Source: a virus. Taken from it: a DNA stretch of 64,000 nt. The stretch lies in IMG/VR virus record IMGVR_UViG_3300008111_000003. The stretch is one strand, 5' to 3'. Below the pieces are notes generated by a model. That model had not been told where the DNA came from and did no database searches. It saw only the letters and a list, made by a program, of their open reading frames with translations. Position numbers and translations under genes: made by a program. Positions 22,909 to 44,989 of the stretch are shown piece after piece (the first letter of the stretch is position 1; each line of letters begins with the position of its first letter).

Positions 22909-23149
22909 TATTATAGTATGGTGTGTATATGGTTTATTTGTGGGTTCCATAGCCAAGAGCATAGTACCTGGTGAAGAAAATTTTGGCTTTGTGAAAACTG
23001 TTGCTTTAGGCGTAATTGGTTCGTATACTGGTGGAGCCATACTATACCTATTAGGGTCATATAGTTCAGTATCTCCTGCTGGTATTTTTATGGGTATTGC
23101 TGGATCAATAGTATCACTAATAGTATATAATAAATTAGTGTTAAAATGA
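22901..23149 (+). CDS. GlsB/YeaQ/YmgE (transglycosylase-associated) membrane protein
   Basis: GLFVG.IAK.I.PG...T.ALGVIGS..GG...GS pattern. Confidence 0.8.
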   Translation: MFDIIVWCVYGLFVGSIAKSIVPGEENFGFVKTVALGVIGSYTGGAILYLLGSYSSVSPAGIFMGIAGSIVSLIVYNKLVLK

Positions 23150-24531
23150 GATGCTGCGGGCCTATTGATAGAAGATCTTTTCTAGAAATTGGTTCTTTAG
23201 GATTTGCTGGATTGACATTATCGGATATGATCCAACTACAAGCAGTAGAACCCAAACCTAGAAAGTCTTTGATTTTTATATGGTTACCCGGTGGTGTTTC
23301 TCAGTTAGAAACGTATGATCTTAAACCGCAAGCGCCAGACGAATATAGAGGTCTATTAAAACCAATTAATACTAATATTAATGGTATACAAATAAGTGAA
23401 CTATTTCCAAAGCAATCCAAGATTGCAGACAAGTTTACTATTATTCGCTCAATGAGTCATTCTTTTACCGATCATGGTGGCGGCTCTAAAAGAGTTATGA
23501 TGGCTAGAAGACCAGCAACACCAACAGGAACTATTAATGACCACCCGTCAACCTGTTCAATGATAAATAGATTTACAGAAAAAAATAATACATCATCTAT
23601 ACCTAATAGTATTATTTTAGGAGATAGTGGAGCAACCAAACCCGATAGCATAGCTTTGGGCGCAGCATATCTAGGACCACAGTATACCCCATTTGAAGTT
23701 GATGGGGATCCATCAAAACATAATTTTAAAGTTAATTCATTATCCCTAAGCATGGGTTTAACTTCTGAAAGACTAGATAATAGAATGAATTTACTCAAAT
23801 CTATAGATAAAGTTGATCGCTCAATAGATTTAACAAAATCGATGTCTACTATGGATAAGTTTCATGATCAGGCACAAAATTTATTATTTAGTTCCTCTGT
23901 GAAAGCTGCGTTTGATGTTTCTCTAGAAAAAGAAAATATAAGATTAAAGTATGGTCAACACGCCTGGGGACAAAGAGCTTTAATGGCAAGACGATTAATC
24001 GAAGCTGGATGCGGTAGTGTTATTGTTACTATGAGTAATCCTAGTGTATCTATTAAACCGCCGACAGATAATACTTATTATAACTGGGATTGTCATGCTG
24101 TTAATACTCATTTATTTGATGATATGAAATTTAGAGCGCCATTATATGACGAAGCCATAGCTGCTCTAATAGAAGATGTTTATGATAGAGGATTAGATAA
24201 GGATGTTATGATTGTAGTAATGGGTGAATTTGGACACACTCCAAAATTAGAATATAAATCTGGTAAAGGTGGAAAAATTTGGCCGGGCAGAGATCATTGG
24301 TCAAAAGCATATTCAATTCTTGTTTCTGGTGGTGGCTTTAAAATGGGTCAGGTTATTGGCAAGTCTGATGACAAGGGAGCTTTTGTTGAAGATAGAATGA
24401 TATTACCAGAAGATTTATGGACTACAATATTTTATCATATGAATATTAATCCAAAAAGTATTATCCATGATTTTACTGGTCGACCAATACCACTTTTACC
24501 AGAAGGTAATCTTATAAAGGAATTAATATAA
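23146..24531 (+). CDS. DUF1501-family protein (Planctomycete-type, Tat-like leader)
   Basis: DRRSFL leader, IWL.GG.SQLET.D.KP, ARRLIEAG, WD.H, MGEFG.TP, GRDHW, GQVIG.SD. Confidence 0.85.
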   Translation: MRCCGPIDRRSFLEIGSLGFAGLTLSDMIQLQAVEPKPRKSLIFIWLPGGVSQLETYDLKPQAPDEYRGLLKPINTNINGIQISELFPKQSKIADKFTIIRSMSHSFTDHGGGSKRVMMARRPATPTGTINDHPSTCSMINRFTEKNNTSSIPNSIILGDSGATKPDSIALGAAYLGPQYTPFEVDGDPSKHNFKVNSLSLSMGLTSERLDNRMNLLKSIDKVDRSIDLTKSMSTMDKFHDQAQNLLFSSSVKAAFDVSLEKENIRLKYGQHAWGQRALMARRLIEAGCGSVIVTMSNPSVSIKPPTDNTYYNWDCHAVNTHLFDDMKFRAPLYDEAIAALIEDVYDRGLDKDVMIVVMGEFGHTPKLEYKSGKGGKIWPGRDHWSKAYSILVSGGGFKMGQVIGKSDDKGAFVEDRMILPEDLWTTIFYHMNINPKSIIHDFTGRPIPLLPEGNLIKELI

Positions 24532-24533
24532 TC

Positions 24534-25884
24534 ATGAGTATTATTCTACCAACAATAACAAATAGAAGAAATTATATAAAAGGATTAACTCTTGGTGCAG
24601 GAGCTATTATTCTACAGCCTTTTTTAGATTCCTTAGCATCTCAAGCTAATGGAGAAAAATCTCCCCCCTCGTATAATATTTTTTATTGAATCCAATGGAC
24701 TATATCCCCGTCATATACAGCCAAAAGAAATAAAAACTACTAGTGAATCTAATATAATTGATAAATCTTTGAATGAATTAGAATTACCAGATGCTATAGC
24801 GCCACTTAATCCATTAAAGGAAAAAATGTGTATAATACAAAAACTATCACATAAAGTCTCTGGTGGCGGAGACCATGGAAAAGGATATGGCGGATTAGGA
24901 TGTTTTCATTGGAGAAAAGATGTTGCTGGTCAAACTATAGATCATGCACTAGCTGAATCTGTTAAAAGTATAATCCCAGTATTAGGTTTAGCTATACCTC
25001 CACAATCATCTGCAATTTTTGTTCAAAGTGTATCAGCTATTGGATATAAAAAACCGCTATCAATGATTTGTCAACCAAATGTTGCTTTTCAAACATTATT
25101 TGGTAGTGTAGCAGAGGGCGATGCGGGTAAAATATATAATGCTAGAAATAAACTACTAGACTATATTAAAACAGATATAAATAGAGTACGCAATAGTTTA
25201 CCATCAATGGATAAGATTAAATTAGATAATTATTTACAATCATTTGATGAGATTTTATATAGACAAAATGAAACTATTAAAATTCAGGATAAGATTAGAC
25301 GAAACCAACCAATAACAGATAAATTTCATAGTGAATTAAATATCGATAGATTTGAATCTCAGTGTGATATTTTAGTGTCAGCTCTTATTAGTGGACTAAC
25401 AAATATAGTTACTTTAGATGCTGCTGGTGGAATTCAACAATATCATACATGGAAATCTTTAGGTATTGATATTGATGGTCATGCTATTGGTCATATGAAT
25501 GGACCAGATAATTTATCTGTACCAATTCGTAAATATCATGCTGAAAGAGTATTAGATATTGCTAATAGACTCGATTCTATTAAAGAGGGCGATGGTACAA
25601 TGCTTGATAATAGTCTTATAGTTTGGATGAGCGACTCTGGTGAGGGTCATCATGGTTTTTGTGCCGAATGGCCTATTGTATTGATAGGTAATTTAGGCGG
25701 CAGACTAAAAACCGATGGTAGATTTTTACAATATCCAGCTTATGGTAGTACCGGCAACAGAACCATTCGCAATCTCTATCTATCGCTGCTACATGCTGTT
25801 GGAGATAACAGAGAAAAATTTGGAGAGCTTGATTTAGAAATGGCAGCAGCCGAACAGTCTGGTCCATTAACAGAAATACTATAA
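24534..25884 (+). CDS. DUF1552-family protein; Tat-like leader (24534-) lies in a different frame from the body, +1 shift at C6 run 24663-24668
   Basis: Leader NRRNYIKGLTLGAG; body PPRIIF...NG, TID..LA, H..GH, EGDGTMLDNSLIVWMSD.G..H, GGRLKT.GR. Confidence 0.75.
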
Positions 25885-37041: not shown

Positions 37042-37569
37042 ATGCCAGCTAAAAAATATTTTATAACTAAAGAATATTTAGAAGAACATTATACCAAACA
37101 AAAAAAGAGCACAACCACCATAGCAAAAGAATTAGGACTTAAATCCACAAATACGCTTAAAAGATTATTAAAAAAATACGATATACCCAACAATAATAAT
37201 AGGGCTGGTAGGCCAGTAAAAACCACACAAAAATTTGGTGAAATACACAAATCATATATCTGTACATTAAGATTACGAGCAAAAAGATTAGATTATGAAT
37301 TCAATTTAAATGGAAAATTTTTATGGGAATTATTTCTAAAACAAAATAGAAAATGTGCTTTATCTGGCATAGAAATAGGATTTCCTCAAGCCTGGGGCGT
37401 TAAAAGTAAAACAGATATTACTGCGTCTCTAGATAGAATAGATAGTAATAAAGGATATACAAAAGATAATGTGCAATGGGTACACAAGCATATAAACACT
37501 ATGAAAATGCATATGACAGATATGGAGTTTATAAGTATCTGTAAGAAAGTAGCGGAATACAACAAGTGA
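37042..37569 (+). CDS. Free-standing HNH-type homing endonuclease
   Basis: N-terminal HTH; Q..KCALSG, SLDRIDS.KGY..DNVQWVHK.IN.MK. Confidence 0.85.
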   Translation: MPAKKYFITKEYLEEHYTKQKKSTTTIAKELGLKSTNTLKRLLKKYDIPNNNNRAGRPVKTTQKFGEIHKSYICTLRLRAKRLDYEFNLNGKFLWELFLKQNRKCALSGIEIGFPQAWGVKSKTDITASLDRIDSNKGYTKDNVQWVHKHINTMKMHMTDMEFISICKKVAEYNK

Positions 37570-38609
37570 TTATAACCTATCTTCGAAGTTCAAGTTTTAA
37601 CACACACTGTTTCTGTGCTCAACAGTATTTTCTTGAATATGTACTAGGCATTAGATCCCCATCAGGAATTAAGGCCGATAAGGGCACTATAGTACATAAA
37701 GCTTTAGAGATTTTAGCCTATATTAAGCTAACATTACAAAATAAAGAAAATATTTATACTGATGATATTGTTGGTCCTATTAATGTTCATGACTATGATT
37801 TAGACCGAATTATTGATGCTGTTTATCAATACTATACGTCTCAGTTTAAACATCACTCATGGTCGGCCAAAGATTTAAAAGATTGTCGTCTATGGGTCAA
37901 CAAAGCGATCACAGATCACAACGGAACCTTCGATCCACGCAATAGAAACATACTTCAACCAGAGCAACATTTTGATATAGTTATAGATAAACCTTGGGCC
38001 TATTATTCGTACAAAACACAATCAGGAATTTTAGATGGTAATTTGGCGATAAAAGGAACTATTGATCTTATTACGGAAGTGGACGAAAATACCATAGAAA
38101 TTGTTGACTGGAAAACTGGCCGCAGACTAGACTGGGCAACTGGTCAAGAAAAAACTTTGGAAAAACTTCAAAATGATCCTCAGTTAAGAATATACCACTA
38201 TGCTGTGCAAAAATTGTATCCGAAAATGGATCATATTATTTTTACCATCAATTTTATTAATGATGGCGGAGCATTTAGTGTTTGTTATGATAAGAGCGAT
38301 TTGCCAAAAACAGAAAATATGATTAGACAAAAGTTTGAAACCATACGAGATACCACAAGACCATCACTTAACAAAAGTTGGAAATGCACCAAATTATGTC
38401 ATTTTGGAAAAACCACTTTTGAGAATAGTCATATTCTACCCATCATAGAATATAGAGATAATCAAATATGTGCCAAAGATACTTTCATGACCAAGTGTGA
38501 ACAAATCAAACACGATATTGATCTGAAAGGCATTAACAATGTGATTGACCAACACACTTTTCCTGGATATACTGTTGGTAAGTACAAAGCACCCGGAAGC
38601 GCAGAATGA
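37566..38609 (+). CDS. PD-(D/E)XK exonuclease (Cas4/RecB-like)
   Basis: GT.VH, E, GTIDL, IVDWKTG, QL..Y, Cys cluster (C...CTKLC). Confidence 0.85.
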   Translation: MIITYLRSSSFNTHCFCAQQYFLEYVLGIRSPSGIKADKGTIVHKALEILAYIKLTLQNKENIYTDDIVGPINVHDYDLDRIIDAVYQYYTSQFKHHSWSAKDLKDCRLWVNKAITDHNGTFDPRNRNILQPEQHFDIVIDKPWAYYSYKTQSGILDGNLAIKGTIDLITEVDENTIEIVDWKTGRRLDWATGQEKTLEKLQNDPQLRIYHYAVQKLYPKMDHIIFTINFINDGGAFSVCYDKSDLPKTENMIRQKFETIRDTTRPSLNKSWKCTKLCHFGKTTFENSHILPIIEYRDNQICAKDTFMTKCEQIKHDIDLKGINNVIDQHTFPGYTVGKYKAPGSAE

Positions 38610-38696
38610 ACACAACCCATTTCTTTTTCACCTCTTTTTTATTATCTGTGTATTCATACTATGAGTGATAATGCAAATTGAGTATAAGGAAATTTT

Positions 38697-39416
38697 ATGA
38701 GAGGCAGAAAAGTAGACAATGGTCGTTTTGTAAAATGTTACGATAATAAATTAACAAAAAAATATCTAGAAAAAGAATATCCAAAACAAGGAGCCTATAA
38801 AATAGCTAAAAGTTTGGGGATTCACGTTAAAACCGTATATAATTATTTAGGATATTACAAAATACCAAGAACTAGACAAGAAAATAATAAAATTAAAAAA
38901 GGCCAAATTTTTGGATTGTTAACTTTAGTAGAACCTGTTGGAAAATTAAAAAACGGCACAATTACATGGAAGTGTATGTGTGACTGCGGAAGCGAGACAA
39001 TAGTACCATCCTCTAGGATAAAAATAGGCAAGGTTAAAAGTTGTGGCTGTTTGAACAAAATTAGTGGCTCAAAAAGATGGAATTGGAAGGGGTATTGTGG
39101 TATTAGTGGAAGCAGATTTTGTGAGATTAGATTAAGAGCCAAAAAGAAAAAATGGGATTTCAACCTAACTCCAAAATTCTTATGGGAACTATTTCAACAA
39201 CAAAACAAGAGATGTGCTATAACTAATGAAATTATAGATTTGAATATTGATGGATCATTAGATAGGATAGACAGTTCAAAAGGATATGTAAAAAATAACG
39301 TTTGGTGGGTTAAAAAAGATATAAATAAGATGAAACTAGACTTTCCATTAAATTTGTTTATCGAATTATGTGAGAAGGTTGTAGCCAATAAGGAGAATAT
39401 AAGAAATGGGCGTTGA
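38697..39416 (+). CDS. Free-standing HNH-type homing endonuclease, paralogue of 37042..37569
   Basis: HTH, W.C.CDCG...SCGC, SLDRIDSSKGY..NNV.WV...IN.MK. Confidence 0.85.
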   Translation: MRGRKVDNGRFVKCYDNKLTKKYLEKEYPKQGAYKIAKSLGIHVKTVYNYLGYYKIPRTRQENNKIKKGQIFGLLTLVEPVGKLKNGTITWKCMCDCGSETIVPSSRIKIGKVKSCGCLNKISGSKRWNWKGYCGISGSRFCEIRLRAKKKKWDFNLTPKFLWELFQQQNKRCAITNEIIDLNIDGSLDRIDSSKGYVKNNVWWVKKDINKMKLDFPLNLFIELCEKVVANKENIRNGR

Positions 39417-39450
39417 GCAACGATATGTGCCGCTACACGTCCATTCCTAA
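39406..39450 (+). CDS. dnaE: DnaE extreme N-terminal peptide MGVEQRYVPLHVHS (not in ORF track)
   Basis: AGGAG SD at 39391; carries the PHP HxH motif missing from the 39458 ORF, which continues MFSLLDG. Confidence 0.8.
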   Translation: MGVEQRYVPLHVHS

Positions 39451-39457
39451 GTGAACT

Positions 39458-40843
39458 ATGTTTTCACTTTTGGATGGACTATCCAAACCAGAGCAAATAG
39501 CAGAAAGATGCAAAGAGATCGGAGCATCTGCTTGTGCGTTAACAGATCATGGTAACATAGCAGGAACCATCAAGTTTTATACTGCTATGAAAAAAGCTGG
39601 ACTAAAGCCTATACTTGGATGTGAACTTTACATTTGTAGTCAAAACCCAAAAATCAAAGAAAAAGATAACAAAAAACTAAGTCATTTTCTGGTATTGGCT
39701 AAGAATTATTCAGGATGGAGAAATCTTATCAAGATAGTTTCATCATCCAATAATCCAGAATATTATTATCATAAGCCGAGATTGGATTTACCAACACTAA
39801 AAGATCTTCATTCAGGGGATTTGATCGGAATAACTGGTCATCTTGGATCAACACTAGCAGATCAAATACTAGACGGGGATGCTCTTAGAGATGATTGGCA
39901 AAATATAGGAGTACAACATATATCTTATCTTAAGACTATATTTGGTGATCATTTGTTTTTGGAAGCTCAATTAATAGATAAAGATAATCTGCCAATCCAA
40001 GAAATCCTCACAAACTGCATCAGAAAATTGGGACAATTAACCAATACTAAAGTTATATGTACTCCTGATGCTCATTATTGTCGCAAAGAGGATGCTGTTG
40101 ATCAGCGAGTATTATTGTGCAACAATCTTAAGATTACATTCTCTGATATTAGTCGTAAAATCATAAACGATCAAGATATTCCTATGGGGTGCTTTTTTAC
40201 ATCAGATAATTATCATATTCCATCTCAGGAGGAAATGAAGAACATACACACAGAAGAAGAAATCAATAATACAAATTTTGTGTGTGATTTAGTGGAAGAA
40301 TATAACATACTAAGTAAACCTAAATTACCATTATTTAAATGTCCACCAAATTTCTCTCAGGATGAATATTTAAGAGAACTGTGTAGAAACGGATGGAGAG
40401 ATAAAATAGCAAATGTTGTACCTAAAGAAGATCAACAACCATACTTGGATCGTATCAAATACGAACTAGAGGTTTTACAGGGTGCTGGGCTGAGTAGTTA
40501 TTTTTTAATAGTACAAGATATTGTGAACTATGTTAAAAGAGAAGGATGGCTTCCGGGACCGGGACGAGGTTGTTTTATACCAGAAACAAGAGTTAAAATG
40601 GCTTCTGGTGAATTGATGCCTATCTATAATATAGAAATAGGAGATCAAGTAATAGATGCTTTTGGAAATAAACAAAGAGTCTATGATATAATGAGATATG
40701 AAATAGATGAAGAAATACTGGAAATAGAATTAGAAAATGGTAAAATCATAAGATGTACAAAAGATCATAGATTTTTAACACTAAATAGGGGTTGGGTTGA
40801 AGCCCAGTATCTATCAGAAAATGATGATTTGGCCAAAATATAA
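39458..40843 (+). CDS. dnaE: DNA polymerase III alpha, PHP/N-terminal fragment fused to the N-half of a split intein
   Basis: SLLDG, ALTDHG, GCE, DAHY, R..YEL, YFLIV.D, GPGRG, then intein CFIPET. Confidence 0.93.
   Translation: MFSLLDGLSKPEQIAERCKEIGASACALTDHGNIAGTIKFYTAMKKAGLKPILGCELYICSQNPKIKEKDNKKLSHFLVLAKNYSGWRNLIKIVSSSNNPEYYYHKPRLDLPTLKDLHSGDLIGITGHLGSTLADQILDGDALRDDWQNIGVQHISYLKTIFGDHLFLEAQLIDKDNLPIQEILTNCIRKLGQLTNTKVICTPDAHYCRKEDAVDQRVLLCNNLKITFSDISRKIINDQDIPMGCFFTSDNYHIPSQEEMKNIHTEEEINNTNFVCDLVEEYNILSKPKLPLFKCPPNFSQDEYLRELCRNGWRDKIANVVPKEDQQPYLDRIKYELEVLQGAGLSSYFLIVQDIVNYVKREGWLPGPGRGCFIPETRVKMASGELMPIYNIEIGDQVIDAFGNKQRVYDIMRYEIDEEILEIELENGKIIRCTKDHRFLTLNRGWVEAQYLSENDDLAKI
40571..40840 (+). 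mobile_element. Split intein N-fragment (90 aa)
   Basis: Block A CFIPETRV, block B CTKDHRFLT, GW.EA..L...D; ends at a stop codon. Confidence 0.9.
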
Positions 40844-40845
40844 TA

Positions 40846-40863
40846 AGAACCTCTTCCTGGACC
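40846..40863 (-). promoter_or_regulatory. Inverted copy of the intein-less insertion site (reads GPGRGS on the minus strand)
   Basis: Reverse complement is GGT CCA GGA AGA GGT TCT; ends 6 nt before the GGTGTAT motif at 40870. Confidence 0.7.
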
Positions 40864-40900
40864 ACTTTTGGTGTATCCTACTATGAAAGGACAATCTTGT

Positions 40901-41719
40901 ATGGAATATATAGCATTTAAATCTTTACAAGACAATAATTTTGAATACAGGGGATTAAGCAATAAACCTATTAAAGACATATGTATAAAATGCAATAAAA
41001 CTTTTGAATACGCTAAACTTAAGAAATTTATTAGGAGCAGAGTAAACATCCCAAAAATATATTGGTGTCAATGTCAGAAATGTTTTTTGCGATATAGAAC
41101 TATTGATAATTCAGACTGGATAGAAAAAAATAGGAAAGCACAACTTATAGCGCAAAATAAAGAAGAACAAAAGAAAAAGAACGCGGAGGCAGTATCAAAA
41201 TCTTGGACAAGAACAAGAAAAAATAAAGCTTCTGAATATCTTAAAGAAAGATGGGTTAATGATGAGGCTTTTAAAAATAAGGCTACTCTTAATTTAACCA
41301 ATAATAGAAGATATAATTTTACAAACGGAATTGCTACTGGGGGTCTTAGAGGATTATATAACGATATATACTATGATAGTGCGCTAGAACTATCTTTTAT
41401 ATTGTGGTGTGAATACAATAGTATGCCGATTAAAAGATATGATCAAGATTCTATTAAGTATGTAGATGAAAATACTATCGAAAGAGAATATTTTCCTGAT
41501 TTTATTATCAATAACACAACTATTGTCGAAATAAAAGGAAAAGGAATTTGGTATAATCGACACTTTGAACGCAATAAATTAAAAATGATAGCAGCAAAGA
41601 CCAAATTTAATGCAAAGTATTGCATATATTACGACTGGGATGAACAAACAAAATTATTTTATCGAAAGGCTAGAAAATTACATCATGAAAATAAAAAGAA
41701 AAACGTCGCTATCATATAA
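40901..41719 (+). CDS. Free-standing PD-(D/E)XK (TnsA N-terminal-like) homing endonuclease between the intein halves
   Basis: Zinc ribbon C..C...C..C; YDS.LE..F, YFPDF, IVEIKG; start 40901 (AAGGA SD) or 40883. Confidence 0.75.
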   Translation: MEYIAFKSLQDNNFEYRGLSNKPIKDICIKCNKTFEYAKLKKFIRSRVNIPKIYWCQCQKCFLRYRTIDNSDWIEKNRKAQLIAQNKEEQKKKNAEAVSKSWTRTRKNKASEYLKERWVNDEAFKNKATLNLTNNRRYNFTNGIATGGLRGLYNDIYYDSALELSFILWCEYNSMPIKRYDQDSIKYVDENTIEREYFPDFIINNTTIVEIKGKGIWYNRHFERNKLKMIAAKTKFNAKYCIYYDWDEQTKLFYRKARKLHHENKKKNVAII

Positions 41720-42518
41720 GGGTACTGTGTGCGATTTGTCTGTAACCAATACAGCATCTTATAATGTTGAAGGGATTGGAGTACACAATAGTGCGGCGGG
41801 GTGTTTGGTATCCTATCTCATCGGCATAACTAATATTGATCCTATAAAATATAGTCTGCTTTTTGAAAGATTCTATAATGAGGGTCGTAACACAGCAGAC
41901 AATATTTCCATGCCAGATATTGATGTAGATATACCTATCGAAAAGCGAGAAATGGTTATTCAATATATCAAAGACAAATATGGTTCGGACAAAGTTTCTC
42001 AAATGGTTACTTTCAATACGATCAAGGGTAGGGGCGCACTAAAAGACGTATTAAGAGTATATGGTAATATTACATTTGAAGAAATGAATAAGATAACCAA
42101 AAATATCCCCGATGAGTCTAAGATTGCCGATGATCTTCAAGAGATGAAAGAAGAAACTGGCGAAGCATCCATCGTTCGATGGGCTTTGGAAAACGATAAT
42201 GATAAGCTTAAAGAATGGTGCTTTATTGATGAAAAAGGACAACTACAAGGCCTCTTGTCAAAAAGGTTTGAACAGGCTATTAGACTAGAGGGCACCAAGT
42301 CAAATCAGTCCAAACATGCTGCTGGTATTGCTATCAGTAGTGAACCATTAAATGAATTATGTCCTATGGTTTATGATAGTAAGAATGATCAGTTAATAGC
42401 AGGAATGGAGATGCAAGACTTGGAAAGCATAGGAATTATTAAGTTTGATATTCTTGGTGTTGCTCTTCTTGATAAAGTGATGACAATCAGAGACCTTTTA
42501 AATGAAGGAGTTCAATAA
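41685..42518 (+). CDS. dnaE: Split intein C-fragment (35 aa, 41685-41789) + DnaE catalytic palm fragment
   Basis: MKIKRK...VCDLSV...SYNVEGIGVHN|SAAGCLVSYL.GIT.IDP, FERF.N..R, PDIDVD, HAAG, KFDILG. Confidence 0.93.
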   Translation: MKIKRKTSLSYKGTVCDLSVTNTASYNVEGIGVHNSAAGCLVSYLIGITNIDPIKYSLLFERFYNEGRNTADNISMPDIDVDIPIEKREMVIQYIKDKYGSDKVSQMVTFNTIKGRGALKDVLRVYGNITFEEMNKITKNIPDESKIADDLQEMKEETGEASIVRWALENDNDKLKEWCFIDEKGQLQGLLSKRFEQAIRLEGTKSNQSKHAAGIAISSEPLNELCPMVYDSKNDQLIAGMEMQDLESIGIIKFDILGVALLDKVMTIRDLLNEGVQ

Positions 42519-42703
42519 TGATGGTTAAGTTTAAAGATGTGGCTGAAAATACATTATTTAGCAAAGATGGTGTGGAATTCAAAAAAATACAACTAGTAAA
42601 AATTAGTTGTTGTAAAACAATAAATGCTATACAAGTATTAGATCCTAGAAATAGAGTGCTTTTTAATCAAGAAGATGAAGTAGAAGTGAATGATCAACTA
42701 TAA
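42518..42703 (+). CDS. Small hypothetical protein
   Basis: GGAG SD; TAATG coupling. Confidence 0.55.
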   Translation: MMVKFKDVAENTLFSKDGVEFKKIQLVKISCCKTINAIQVLDPRNRVLFNQEDEVEVNDQL

Positions 42704-43385
42704 TAAGATTTGTGTTTTTGATTTTGAGACAGACGGATCGGATCCATCAGAATGCAGTCCTGTACAGATTGCTGCTATTATGATAGATCCATTAAATTTG
42801 GACATTATACCCGGCTCAGAGTTCAATATAAACTTTAGGCCAGAAGTTTTGGAAAACAACGAAAACTACAAATACGAAACAGATATATTAGATTTTCATT
42901 CAAAGGTTAAAGGGTGTTCTCAAGACGAGGTTTTAGCCTCGTGGTATAAATATCCTAAACAGGATCATTCTTGGAAATTATTCACAGCCTATTTGGATAA
43001 ATACCATTCACGAGCAACTAAAAAAAGTCAATTTTCTGCACCTATTGCTGCTGGTTATAATATACATAGATTTGATCTACATATCATAGACAGATTAAGC
43101 AAAAAGTATGGTAATTTGAACAAAGAAAAAAGAACAGATTTATTTTATCCTAGAGACACTATAGATGCTATGCAATTAATGTTTTATTGGTTTGAGCATA
43201 GTAGTGATCTTAAAAGTTATTCGTTAGATACTGTGAGAGATTATCTGGGAATTAGCAAAGATGGTGCTCACGATGCTCTAAAAGATGTTCAGGATACAGC
43301 AGCAATAATAATTAGGTTTTTAAAGTTACATCGTAATTTGGGACAAAAGGTAAAGTTTAAGAATTCTTTTGCAAATCAGGCATGA
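42690..43385 (+). CDS. DEDDh 3'-5' exonuclease (DnaQ/epsilon-like)
   Basis: DFETDG, GYNI..FD, AHDALKDV. Confidence 0.9.
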   Translation: MINYNKICVFDFETDGSDPSECSPVQIAAIMIDPLNLDIIPGSEFNINFRPEVLENNENYKYETDILDFHSKVKGCSQDEVLASWYKYPKQDHSWKLFTAYLDKYHSRATKKSQFSAPIAAGYNIHRFDLHIIDRLSKKYGNLNKEKRTDLFYPRDTIDAMQLMFYWFEHSSDLKSYSLDTVRDYLGISKDGAHDALKDVQDTAAIIIRFLKLHRNLGQKVKFKNSFANQA

Positions 43386-44989
43386 CTAAAAAATATCAAT
43401 ATCCTTGTGGATGTTCTTTTGAGTTAAATGATAACAATGGATTAGTTTTTGATCCAGATATTAACTCTATAAATTTGGACTGTTCCAGAACATGGGGTCT
43501 AATTTCGGATGGTAATACTAAGGGTTGTTTTCAATTAGAATCTCGTCTAGGACGATCCATAGCCAAAAAACTTAAGCCAGAAAATATAGAGCAGCTTTCT
43601 GCACTAATTGCTGTGTTAAGACCCGGCTCATTAGAGGCTATTAGAGATGGTAAAAGTGTAACCAATCATTATATCGATAAAAAGAATGGTCAAGAAACAC
43701 TAGATAACTTTCATCCCGTTCTTGAGCCAATCCTAAATTCAACATACGGAGAGATGATATATCAAGAACAAGCAATGGAAATTGCTAAGATAGTTGCTGG
43801 TTTTAATTTGCGAGAAGCAGATATGTTAAGAAAAGCTATTGGTAAGAAAAAACCAGAAGAAATGGCAAAGGTTAAGTCAAAGTTTTTAGAAGGATCATCA
43901 AAACTGAATATCTTAAGCACAAATGAGGCAGAACAGGTGTTTGGTTGGATTGAAAAAAGTCAAAGATATTCTTTCAATAAGTCCCATTCTGTTAGTTATG
44001 CTATTAATGCGTACTTATCAGCATATGCCAAAGCACATTTTCCAAAAATATTTTTTGCATCATATCTCAGATTTGCCAAAGATAAAAAAGATCCTCAAGC
44101 AGAGATAAAAGAATTGGTACAAAATGCTAATGAAATGGATATTACTGTTCATACTCCTGATATTAGAAATCTTAATGAGTTCTTTATATTGAAGAACGAT
44201 AAGATATATTTTGGTTTAACAGATATTAAGGGTGTGGGCAAATCGGTATTTGATAAGCTTAGAGGAATATCTTTGAATGTTAAATTTGATTCATCTAATT
44301 GGCTTCAGTTTTTATTCTTAGTTTTGAATAGAATTAATTCTACAGCAGCCAAAGCTTTGATCCAAAGCGGGGCGCTTAGTTTTATACCAATAACCAGAAG
44401 TAAGATGTTGTATGAATATAATCTTGTTAGCACTTTAACAGCCAAAGAGATTGAGCATATTTGTAATAACTTGACCAAATTCACCACACTAAAGGAATGT
44501 TTGGGATTTGTGATGGGTTTACCTAGAGTTAATAAGAATAGACAAAATTCTATCAGAGATTCTTTGTATGCTTTAGATTTTCCACCACATTCATTGGATG
44601 ATAGTCCGGAGTGGATAGCAGACTGCGAAGATGCCTTACTTGGATGCTCTATTACTTGTTCCAAGCTGGATATGTATGATATTAGTATGACCAATATAAC
44701 ATGTAGAGAATTAAAGAATACGTCTATGAAAGATAATCTTATTCTTGGCGGAGAAATAGATAATATCAATATTGTAAAGACCAAAAGTGGTAAAAATCCC
44801 GGTCAAGAAATGGCTTTTGTTACAATGACAGATCAAACTGGTTGTGTTGACTCTATAGTATTTTTTCCTGAACAATACAAAACTTTCAAGAATTTACTAT
44901 TTTTGGGCAATATTGTTATTGTGAAAGGATCTAAGTCCAAGAACGGAGATGGTATCATAGTAGAAAAGGGTTATATAGCAAAAACTTGA
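43382..44989 (+). CDS. dnaE: DNA polymerase III alpha, C-terminal fragment (fingers, HhH, OB)
   Basis: G.FQLES, RPG, YQEQ.M, AD.LRKAIGKK, YSFNKSH, FGL..IKGVG, MAF....D..G. Confidence 0.93.
   Translation: MTKKYQYPCGCSFELNDNNGLVFDPDINSINLDCSRTWGLISDGNTKGCFQLESRLGRSIAKKLKPENIEQLSALIAVLRPGSLEAIRDGKSVTNHYIDKKNGQETLDNFHPVLEPILNSTYGEMIYQEQAMEIAKIVAGFNLREADMLRKAIGKKKPEEMAKVKSKFLEGSSKLNILSTNEAEQVFGWIEKSQRYSFNKSHSVSYAINAYLSAYAKAHFPKIFFASYLRFAKDKKDPQAEIKELVQNANEMDITVHTPDIRNLNEFFILKNDKIYFGLTDIKGVGKSVFDKLRGISLNVKFDSSNWLQFLFLVLNRINSTAAKALIQSGALSFIPITRSKMLYEYNLVSTLTAKEIEHICNNLTKFTTLKECLGFVMGLPRVNKNRQNSIRDSLYALDFPPHSLDDSPEWIADCEDALLGCSITCSKLDMYDISMTNITCRELKNTSMKDNLILGGEIDNINIVKTKSGKNPGQEMAFVTMTDQTGCVDSIVFFPEQYKTFKNLLFLGNIVIVKGSKSKNGDGIIVEKGYIAKT

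Follow-up and report, generated by a model that had tools for sequence, protein, structure and literature searches.

A stop-led coding gap in phage dnaE as a probable programmed ribosomal bypass site within a mobile nuclease cassette

A stop-led gap interrupts the first PHP motif of dnaE

The dnaE gene of the phage in IMG/VR record IMGVR_UViG_3300008111_000003 (the window, meaning here the whole stretch of 64,000 nt that was analysed) is interrupted at the start of its PHP domain by a 10-nt gap. This gap is a genuine, conserved genetic element, and comparison of its relatives indicates that it is probably a programmed ribosomal bypass site within a mobile nuclease cassette. The features of the locus are collected in Table 1; when checked against the sequence, the Shine-Dalgarno (SD) site, the ATG at 39406, the TAA, the gap and the resume ATG at 39458 all lie where a first-pass annotation of the same DNA had put them. 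The mini-ORF (ORF1) closes with CAT TCC TAA and ORF2 opens with ATG TTT TCA. At its 5' side the mini-ORF shares 11 nt with a nuclease gene, the 3' end of which provides both the SD and the start of dnaE. The PHP match of ORF2 begins at profile position 8 and, since an ungapped relative aligns with solved DnaE structures from its third residue, the mini-ORF must hold the first PHP strand together with the His-x-His pair. Gene callers truncate the gapped polymerases and leave out two metal ligands.

The gap contains a second stop, TGA, which closes the resume frame, so that a one-base frameshift cannot join the two frames. Two further assemblies share these 10 nt exactly (L001/L089 in IMG/VR and L403, an NCBI MAG contig), and at least 109 loci have variants of them, which in practice excludes an assembly error. 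The codons before the gap had been singled out as unusually GC-rich, and they are: the mini-ORF has 55% GC compared with 33% for the window, a value reached by 0.6% of 42-nt segments. We ascribe this to the two hairpins described below.

Table 1. Positions of the dnaE gap, its predicted RNA structures and the surrounding cassette in the window
Feature	Position	Strand	Details
Cassette 5' edge	38606..38696	+	Starts where the native dnaE start codon lies; overlaps the stop of a PD-(D/E)XK gene; from alignment of L001 with ungapped L070 and spacer comparison
Free-standing HNH-like endonuclease gene, 239 aa	38697..39416	+	PHROG endonuclease/HNH/endonuclease VII matches, E 2e-20 to 5e-13
SD site of the mini-ORF, within the nuclease gene	39389..39396	+	SD-like TAAGGAGA
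dnaE ORF1 (mini-ORF), 14 codons	39406..39450	+	First PHP strand and His-x-His ligands, then TAA; 13-14 codons in 52/52 alleles
Hairpin 1 (5' stem-loop), predicted	39406..39444	+	39406-39413 (start region) paired with 39437-39444 (His-Val-His codons); RNAfold prediction
Hairpin 2 (take-off stem-loop), predicted	39439..39479	+	Upper stem 39449-39455/39463-39469, lower stem 39439-39446/39472-39479; RNAfold -18.9 kcal/mol
Putative take-off codon UCC (Ser)	39445..39447	+	TCN in all gapped alleles
Coding gap, 10 nt	39448..39457	+	TAA 39448-39450, resume-frame TGA 39452-39454, putative landing triplet ACU 39455-39457
dnaE ORF2	39458..40843	+	Remaining PHP domain, start of polymerase domain, N-half of split intein; Pfam PHP, DNA_pol3_alpha, Intein_splicing
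Tract co-transferred with the cassette	39458..39505	+	L001 versus L070: 12 differences in the first 48 nt, 12 in the next ~1030 nt

The gap belongs to a family of alleles in related large phages

A protein search blind to the gap returned 80 viral loci, 16 of which carry a stop-led gap at the same site while the others are intact. Pattern scans raised the gapped set to at least 52 distinct alleles from at least 109 loci, all in related large phages; most of these alleles were recruited with a search pattern in which the flanking codons are fixed, and they are related to one another, so the counts given here are not independent. Gap length ranges from 6 to 12 nt (6 nt in 1 allele, 7 in 2, 8 in 3, 9 in 11, 10 in 16, 11 in 18 and 12 in 1). 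The gaps fall in frames 0, +1 and +2 in 13, 18 and 21 alleles respectively, and no single frameshift can therefore account for the family. Without exception the first gap triplet is a stop codon (TAA 28, TAG 21, TGA 3), a property that also holds among the matches listed by scans with no stop requirement, and an SD-like tetramer lies 6-11 nt 5' of the start in all 52. The alignment of dnaE 5' ends across relatives, which had been proposed as a check, places every gap at one site; conservation of the mini-ORF, on which the first-pass annotation had staked its reading, extends across the 52 alleles. Five relatives are complete genomes of 180-238 kb, and in each the gapped gene is the sole PHP gene.

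Further scans bounded the family. A search for gapped alleles with an ACN/AGY take-off codon found none (it gave noise and one in-frame extra codon), one for longer stop-led gaps at the PHP motif gave nothing new, and one anchored on the 5' part of the gene found no long intron at the gap site. Of the 37 matches in bacterial genomes only L403, a close phage relative, carried the gap; the matches listed from metagenomes were mostly noise, and the best DnaE relatives among cultured phages have less than 40% identity.

Two covarying hairpins flank the gap

RNAfold predicts two stem-loops around the gap. For the 45 nt before the site the mean folding energy is -19.4 kcal/mol in gapped alleles and -3.9 kcal/mol in ungapped ones. 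In hairpin 1 a pair switches between G-C and A-U together with the His codon (32 versus 17 alleles), and a GTG start is accompanied by a compensating change; because a motif was used to place the start, these pair counts are partly built in, which does not apply to the folding energies. In hairpin 2 the gap base-pairs with the Ser-Leu codons that follow it, with the landing and resume codons left in the loop. Here the synonymous third base of the Ser codon covaries with the gap (U-A, A-U and C-G), and 239 pairs are observed against 211.6 +/- 3.8 with shuffled partners, part of the lower stem being fixed by the search pattern. The take-off codon lies within this lower stem, which competes with hairpin 1. 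As judged from covariation and predicted folding, the gap is flanked by two covarying hairpins and forms a conserved RNA device. These hairpins and the range of gap lengths were absent from the earlier description of the bypass and have to be added to it. Some gaps look SD-like, and we considered this as the feature under selection and rejected it: variants keep the hairpin and lose the SD match.

Selection acts on the protein on both sides of the gap

Both pieces of the reading frame bear the marks of translation. In the mini-ORF the Tyr, Pro and Leu codons, which lie outside the search pattern, encode invariant residues and change only synonymously. After the gap, two codons stay [HME][YF] with synonymous variation, the second in 51 of 52 alleles; they are unpaired loop bases 5' of the first TTG, and their conservation implies translation, even though a start codon is lacking there in most alleles.

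This last point bears directly on the simplest alternative, a two-piece protein in which translation terminates at the TAA and re-initiates at the ATG at 39458, the 14-residue peptide completing the PHP barrel in trans. The window allele itself suits such an arrangement, with an ATG exactly at the resume site in a locus where split genes are common, and across the family the landing triplet is mismatched in 9 of the 12 alleles that have this ATG. The remaining alleles do not follow: an ATG at the resume site is found in just 12 of 52 gapped alleles compared with 17 of 41 ungapped ones, in 26 alleles the first possible start is a TTG 3' of the conserved codons, two alleles have no ATG, GTG or TTG before codon 43, and the Ser-like last triplet of the gap is left unexplained. 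The peptide in trans, which the first-pass annotation had offered as an alternative, is thus possible for the window allele and, by sequence comparison, fails for most of the family; as an account of the gap we regard it as very unlikely.

It had also been suggested that the phage is giving up its PHP domain now that a separate DEDDh exonuclease is present; proofreading would then fall to that enzyme. Such a gene does lie at 42690-43385, but it is equally a neighbour of intact dnaE, being present at 37 of 41 ungapped loci (the remaining four are too short), and the eight metal-ligand positions of the PHP domain are invariant in 48 of 48 gapped and in 41 ungapped proteins. We give almost no credence to an abandoned domain, or to an assembly error, given the identical gap in three assemblies.

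The last triplet of the gap resembles the take-off codon

Take-off codon and gap together form 33 distinct types. The last triplet of the gap has C at its second position in 32 of the 33 and TC in 24, while C occupies 3 of 125 interior gap positions and TC never appears earlier in a gap. Exact codon matches include one allele with TCG/TCG and L034, which reads TCT-TAA-TCT. Mismatches at the first landing position affect 17 of 52 alleles, and the mismatched types ACT, GCT and GCC always keep a pyrimidine at position 3. Mismatched landing triplets may therefore keep at least two positions paired with tRNA-Ser(GGA), a trend that is only suggestive (p about 0.035, among related sequences).

The first-pass annotation had proposed take-off at UCC and a partly matched landing at ACU. 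The family-wide resemblance of the two codons favours this; in the window itself, ACU would pair with tRNA-Ser(GGA) at just two of three positions, one of them a wobble. The window gap equals a matched 11-nt gap less one T, from which we take its ACU to be a degenerate landing codon. The partial UCC/ACU match is the weakest point of the bypass reading for the window allele. Also to be set against bypass there are the ATG at the resume site, which would permit re-initiation, a peptide of only 14 residues and the lack of a mini-SD of the gene 60 type.

That the last triplet has an invariant C and a freely varying first base would equally be explained if the 6-12 nt were removed from the RNA as a structured micro-intron by a bacterial or phage cleavage-ligation activity, for example one that cuts ahead of the conserved C at each end and then ligates, and the pairing of the gap with its downstream exon is in keeping with such excision. 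If true, bacterial mRNA would be subject to splicing of a new type. Removal at the RNA level gives no reason for the in-frame stop, be it TAA, TAG or TGA, that invariably forms the first triplet, however, and the proposed junction would create a stop in L071. The insert, at 6-12 nt, has no group I or II intron match in Rfam and ends in T, A or C in 51 of 52 alleles, so there is no terminal G; its geometry is not bulge-helix-bulge; and, counting phage-encoded ligases only, RtcB and Rnl2-type ligases are present in just one of the five complete gapped phage genomes. We consider this very unlikely.

Recoding allele by allele, by stop read-through or +1/-1 frameshifting with a gain of 2-4 residues in the motif, would suit the 35 of 52 alleles in which the resume frame is open through the gap, and the 13 gaps that are in frame. 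It would nevertheless demand three mechanisms of one homologous element, it is blocked by the TGA in the window allele, the extra residues would fall inside a metal-binding motif, and the tRNAs scanned have no suppressor anticodon. We judge it highly improbable.

A programmed bypass of the gap is the reading that we prefer, and the comparative checks that were run all favoured it, as the first-pass annotation had anticipated.

The gap travels with a nuclease gene

Eight full-length relatives of the nuclease were found (58-74% identity), each directly 5' of a gapped dnaE. A complete nuclease gene accompanies 8 of 52 gapped alleles and 0 of 41 ungapped ones, with a remnant at no fewer than four further gapped alleles; the co-occurrence of gap and upstream HNH gene, a proposed check, was thus found. 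An exception to the link is seen in L010/L012 (L012:2726-2970), where a related nuclease remnant lies 5' of an ungapped dnaE with its native start. The description of the upstream gene as an HNH gene overlapping the start stands as regards the overlap and the profile matches, on which the HNH label rests and which are to generic HNH/endonuclease VII PHROG families; the nuclease motif itself has DRID where His is usual. A predicted model of mediocre quality (pLDDT 67) gave no significant match in the PDB, and among viral structures it matched putative HNH proteins with low TM-score.

The boundaries of the cassette are evident from L001, the flanks of which are ~99% identical to those of ungapped L070 except for a tract of ~50 nt after the gap. 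The cassette substitutes its own copy for the first ten dnaE codons. Between the window and L001 it matches at 155 of 157 positions, and further on 35-50 of 60 nt match. Cassette-plus and cassette-minus alleles, near-identical flanks and a co-transferred tract, the hallmarks of a homing cassette, are thus found among L001, L070 and the window. In a quick DnaE tree the gap state changes 19 times, and well-supported branches force nine of these changes. By these alignments the cassette has moved between lineages. That the nuclease drove its spread we only infer, because L001 moved with its nuclease already deleted. This deletion is shared with L403, and the two may have exchanged the cassette by ordinary recombination.

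Several neighbouring arrangements were recorded. Another nuclease gene of the same superfamily (37042-37569), which shares 47% identity with the cassette nuclease over 104 aa, overlaps the PD-(D/E)XK gene at its start and is patchy among relatives. In five gapped loci without the nuclease (L162, L110, L140, L155 and L150) a sigma-70-like promoter (TTGAC, ~17 nt, TACAAT/TATAAC) stands in its place; a promoter scan gave chance level. In the cultured Rhodococcus phages Francesca and Dorin (L365:1032-1505 and L366:1032-1505) the dnaE start is overlapped by an endonuclease VII gene, dnaE being annotated without a gap and in frame from 42 nt upstream. The start motif of dnaE may, on this sequence evidence, be a recurring nuclease target.

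Other features of the locus and its relatives

Further downstream in the window dnaE contains a naturally split intein (40571-41789; N-half to 40843, C-half from ~41685) that encloses a free-standing PD-(D/E)XK-type nuclease gene (40868-41719), as in the fractured gene arrangement (PMC2677866). This 1.2-kb intein/nuclease insert is missing from the close relatives L403, L089, L165 and L166. The C-terminal half of DnaE (finger, HhH and OB) is a separate gene behind the DEDDh exonuclease gene (42690-44989 in all), and the polymerase is accordingly made from at least three translation products.

A tRNA-Ser with anticodon ACT, an unusual one for bacteria, is encoded by four of the five complete relatives (L425:1409-1495, L414:1578-1664, L413:1734-1823 and L407:1575-1661); the codons it reads are AGY and not the UCN of the take-off. 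Two bacterial-looking genes at 23146-25884 in the window (461 and 411 aa, without PHROG match) resemble, by eye, what we take to be DUF1501/DUF1552-type proteins of Planctomycetota, a possible host clue. L403 (RFVO01000077.1), a contig ~90-95% identical to the window phage, is binned in a Chitinophagia MAG, more likely through mis-binning than as a host call.

A model for bypass of the dnaE gap

We propose that a ribosome initiates at 39406, reads 14 codons and would then stall with peptidyl-tRNA-Ser on UCC and, in its A site, a stop codon folded into hairpin 2. The tRNA would release its codon, the ribosome would slide 10 nt, and the tRNA would re-pair at the first Ser-like triplet, presented in the hairpin loop, with translation resuming at 39458; such a hop would bring the PHP motif back to its canonical form. 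As the mRNA exits, hairpin 1 probably closes like a zip, pushing the ribosome forward a short way, and probably hides the start codon from a trailing ribosome, which may limit a second loading. At the DNA level the gap probably disrupts the target of the nuclease while leaving the protein unchanged, so that the cassette-bearing allele would be immune to the adjacent nuclease, which would cut ungapped dnaE and spread the cassette. The hop and the exact point of its junction, what the hairpins do, and both cleavage and immunity are all modelled on gene 60.

Comparison with known bypass systems

Natural programmed bypass is known so far from the T4 gene 60 family, from the byps of yeast mitochondria and from the Hau3 terminase, and searches of the open literature brought up no description of the dnaE gap element. 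In T4 the gene 60 bypass lies in the MobA homing-endonuclease element (bioRxiv 10.1101/2022.08.31.505936; PMC5009743), and the likeness extends to many parts of the device. In both, a stop directly follows the take-off codon (here in 52 of 52 alleles), which resembles the landing codon and lies in the 5' arm of a stem-loop (here predicted and covarying); another stem-loop lies upstream of take-off (here the predicted hairpin 1); the ORF downstream is overlapped by a free-standing HNH-type gene; part of the host gene gives way to the element's own copy and a new N-terminus; and the nuclease decays while the gap persists.

The differences are as marked. The host gene encodes a topoisomerase large subunit in T4 and DnaE here, the codons are Gly/Asp in T4 and Ser here, and the gap is 20-50 nt there but 6-12 nt here. 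T4 has a mini-SD ~6 nt before the landing site, a position taken in the window allele by the take-off codon and stop. In dnaE, unlike gene 60, the putative landing codon sits in a hairpin loop, a third of alleles mismatch at the first position and the upstream hairpin includes the start codon. The nascent peptide is ~46 residues in T4 and 13-14 here; T4 bypass needs a nascent-peptide signal in the exit tunnel, 25-30 residues from the P site (PMC5009743), for which ORF1, with only 13-14 codons, is too short. By analogy the dnaE device would work like gene 60/MobA, and it stands outside that family because the two are unlike in host gene and codon, in gap length, and in mini-SD and nascent peptide.

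Similar in gap length is the terminase of Streptomyces phage Hau3, where a 10-nt insert lies in a conserved motif of an essential gene and the junction peptide was found by MS in E. coli (PMC10732093). Hau3 and dnaE share this setting as well as local RNA structure, whereas the trigger in Hau3 is a rare UUA with a proposed regulatory function and here it is TAA, TAG or TGA in a gap that is part of a nuclease cassette. The Magnusiomyces mitochondrial byps are also short inserts in essential genes, with many variants and tolerance of imperfect take-off and landing, but they are 27-55 nt long, act on mitochondrial ribosomes, are triggered by an unused sense codon and occur in many genes; the dnaE gap meets bacterial ribosomes at one site. 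In the synthetic stop-hops of Weiss et al. (1987) a stop sits between two matched codons, and a 2016 review knew of no natural in-frame stop-hop (both PMC5009743); L034 has exactly this form, TCT-TAA-TCT, although the natural dnaE alleles add dedicated hairpins.

If the bypass reading is true, bypass has had an independent origin, in a replicative polymerase, and homing nucleases and coding gaps have been paired on more than one occasion. The whole device would occupy ~75 nt, with a peptide of 14 residues, and the hop would be driven by a stop and two small hairpins without the long nascent-peptide signal of gene 60; its 52 natural variants, spread over three frames, offer a mutational series already at hand on what sets the landing site.
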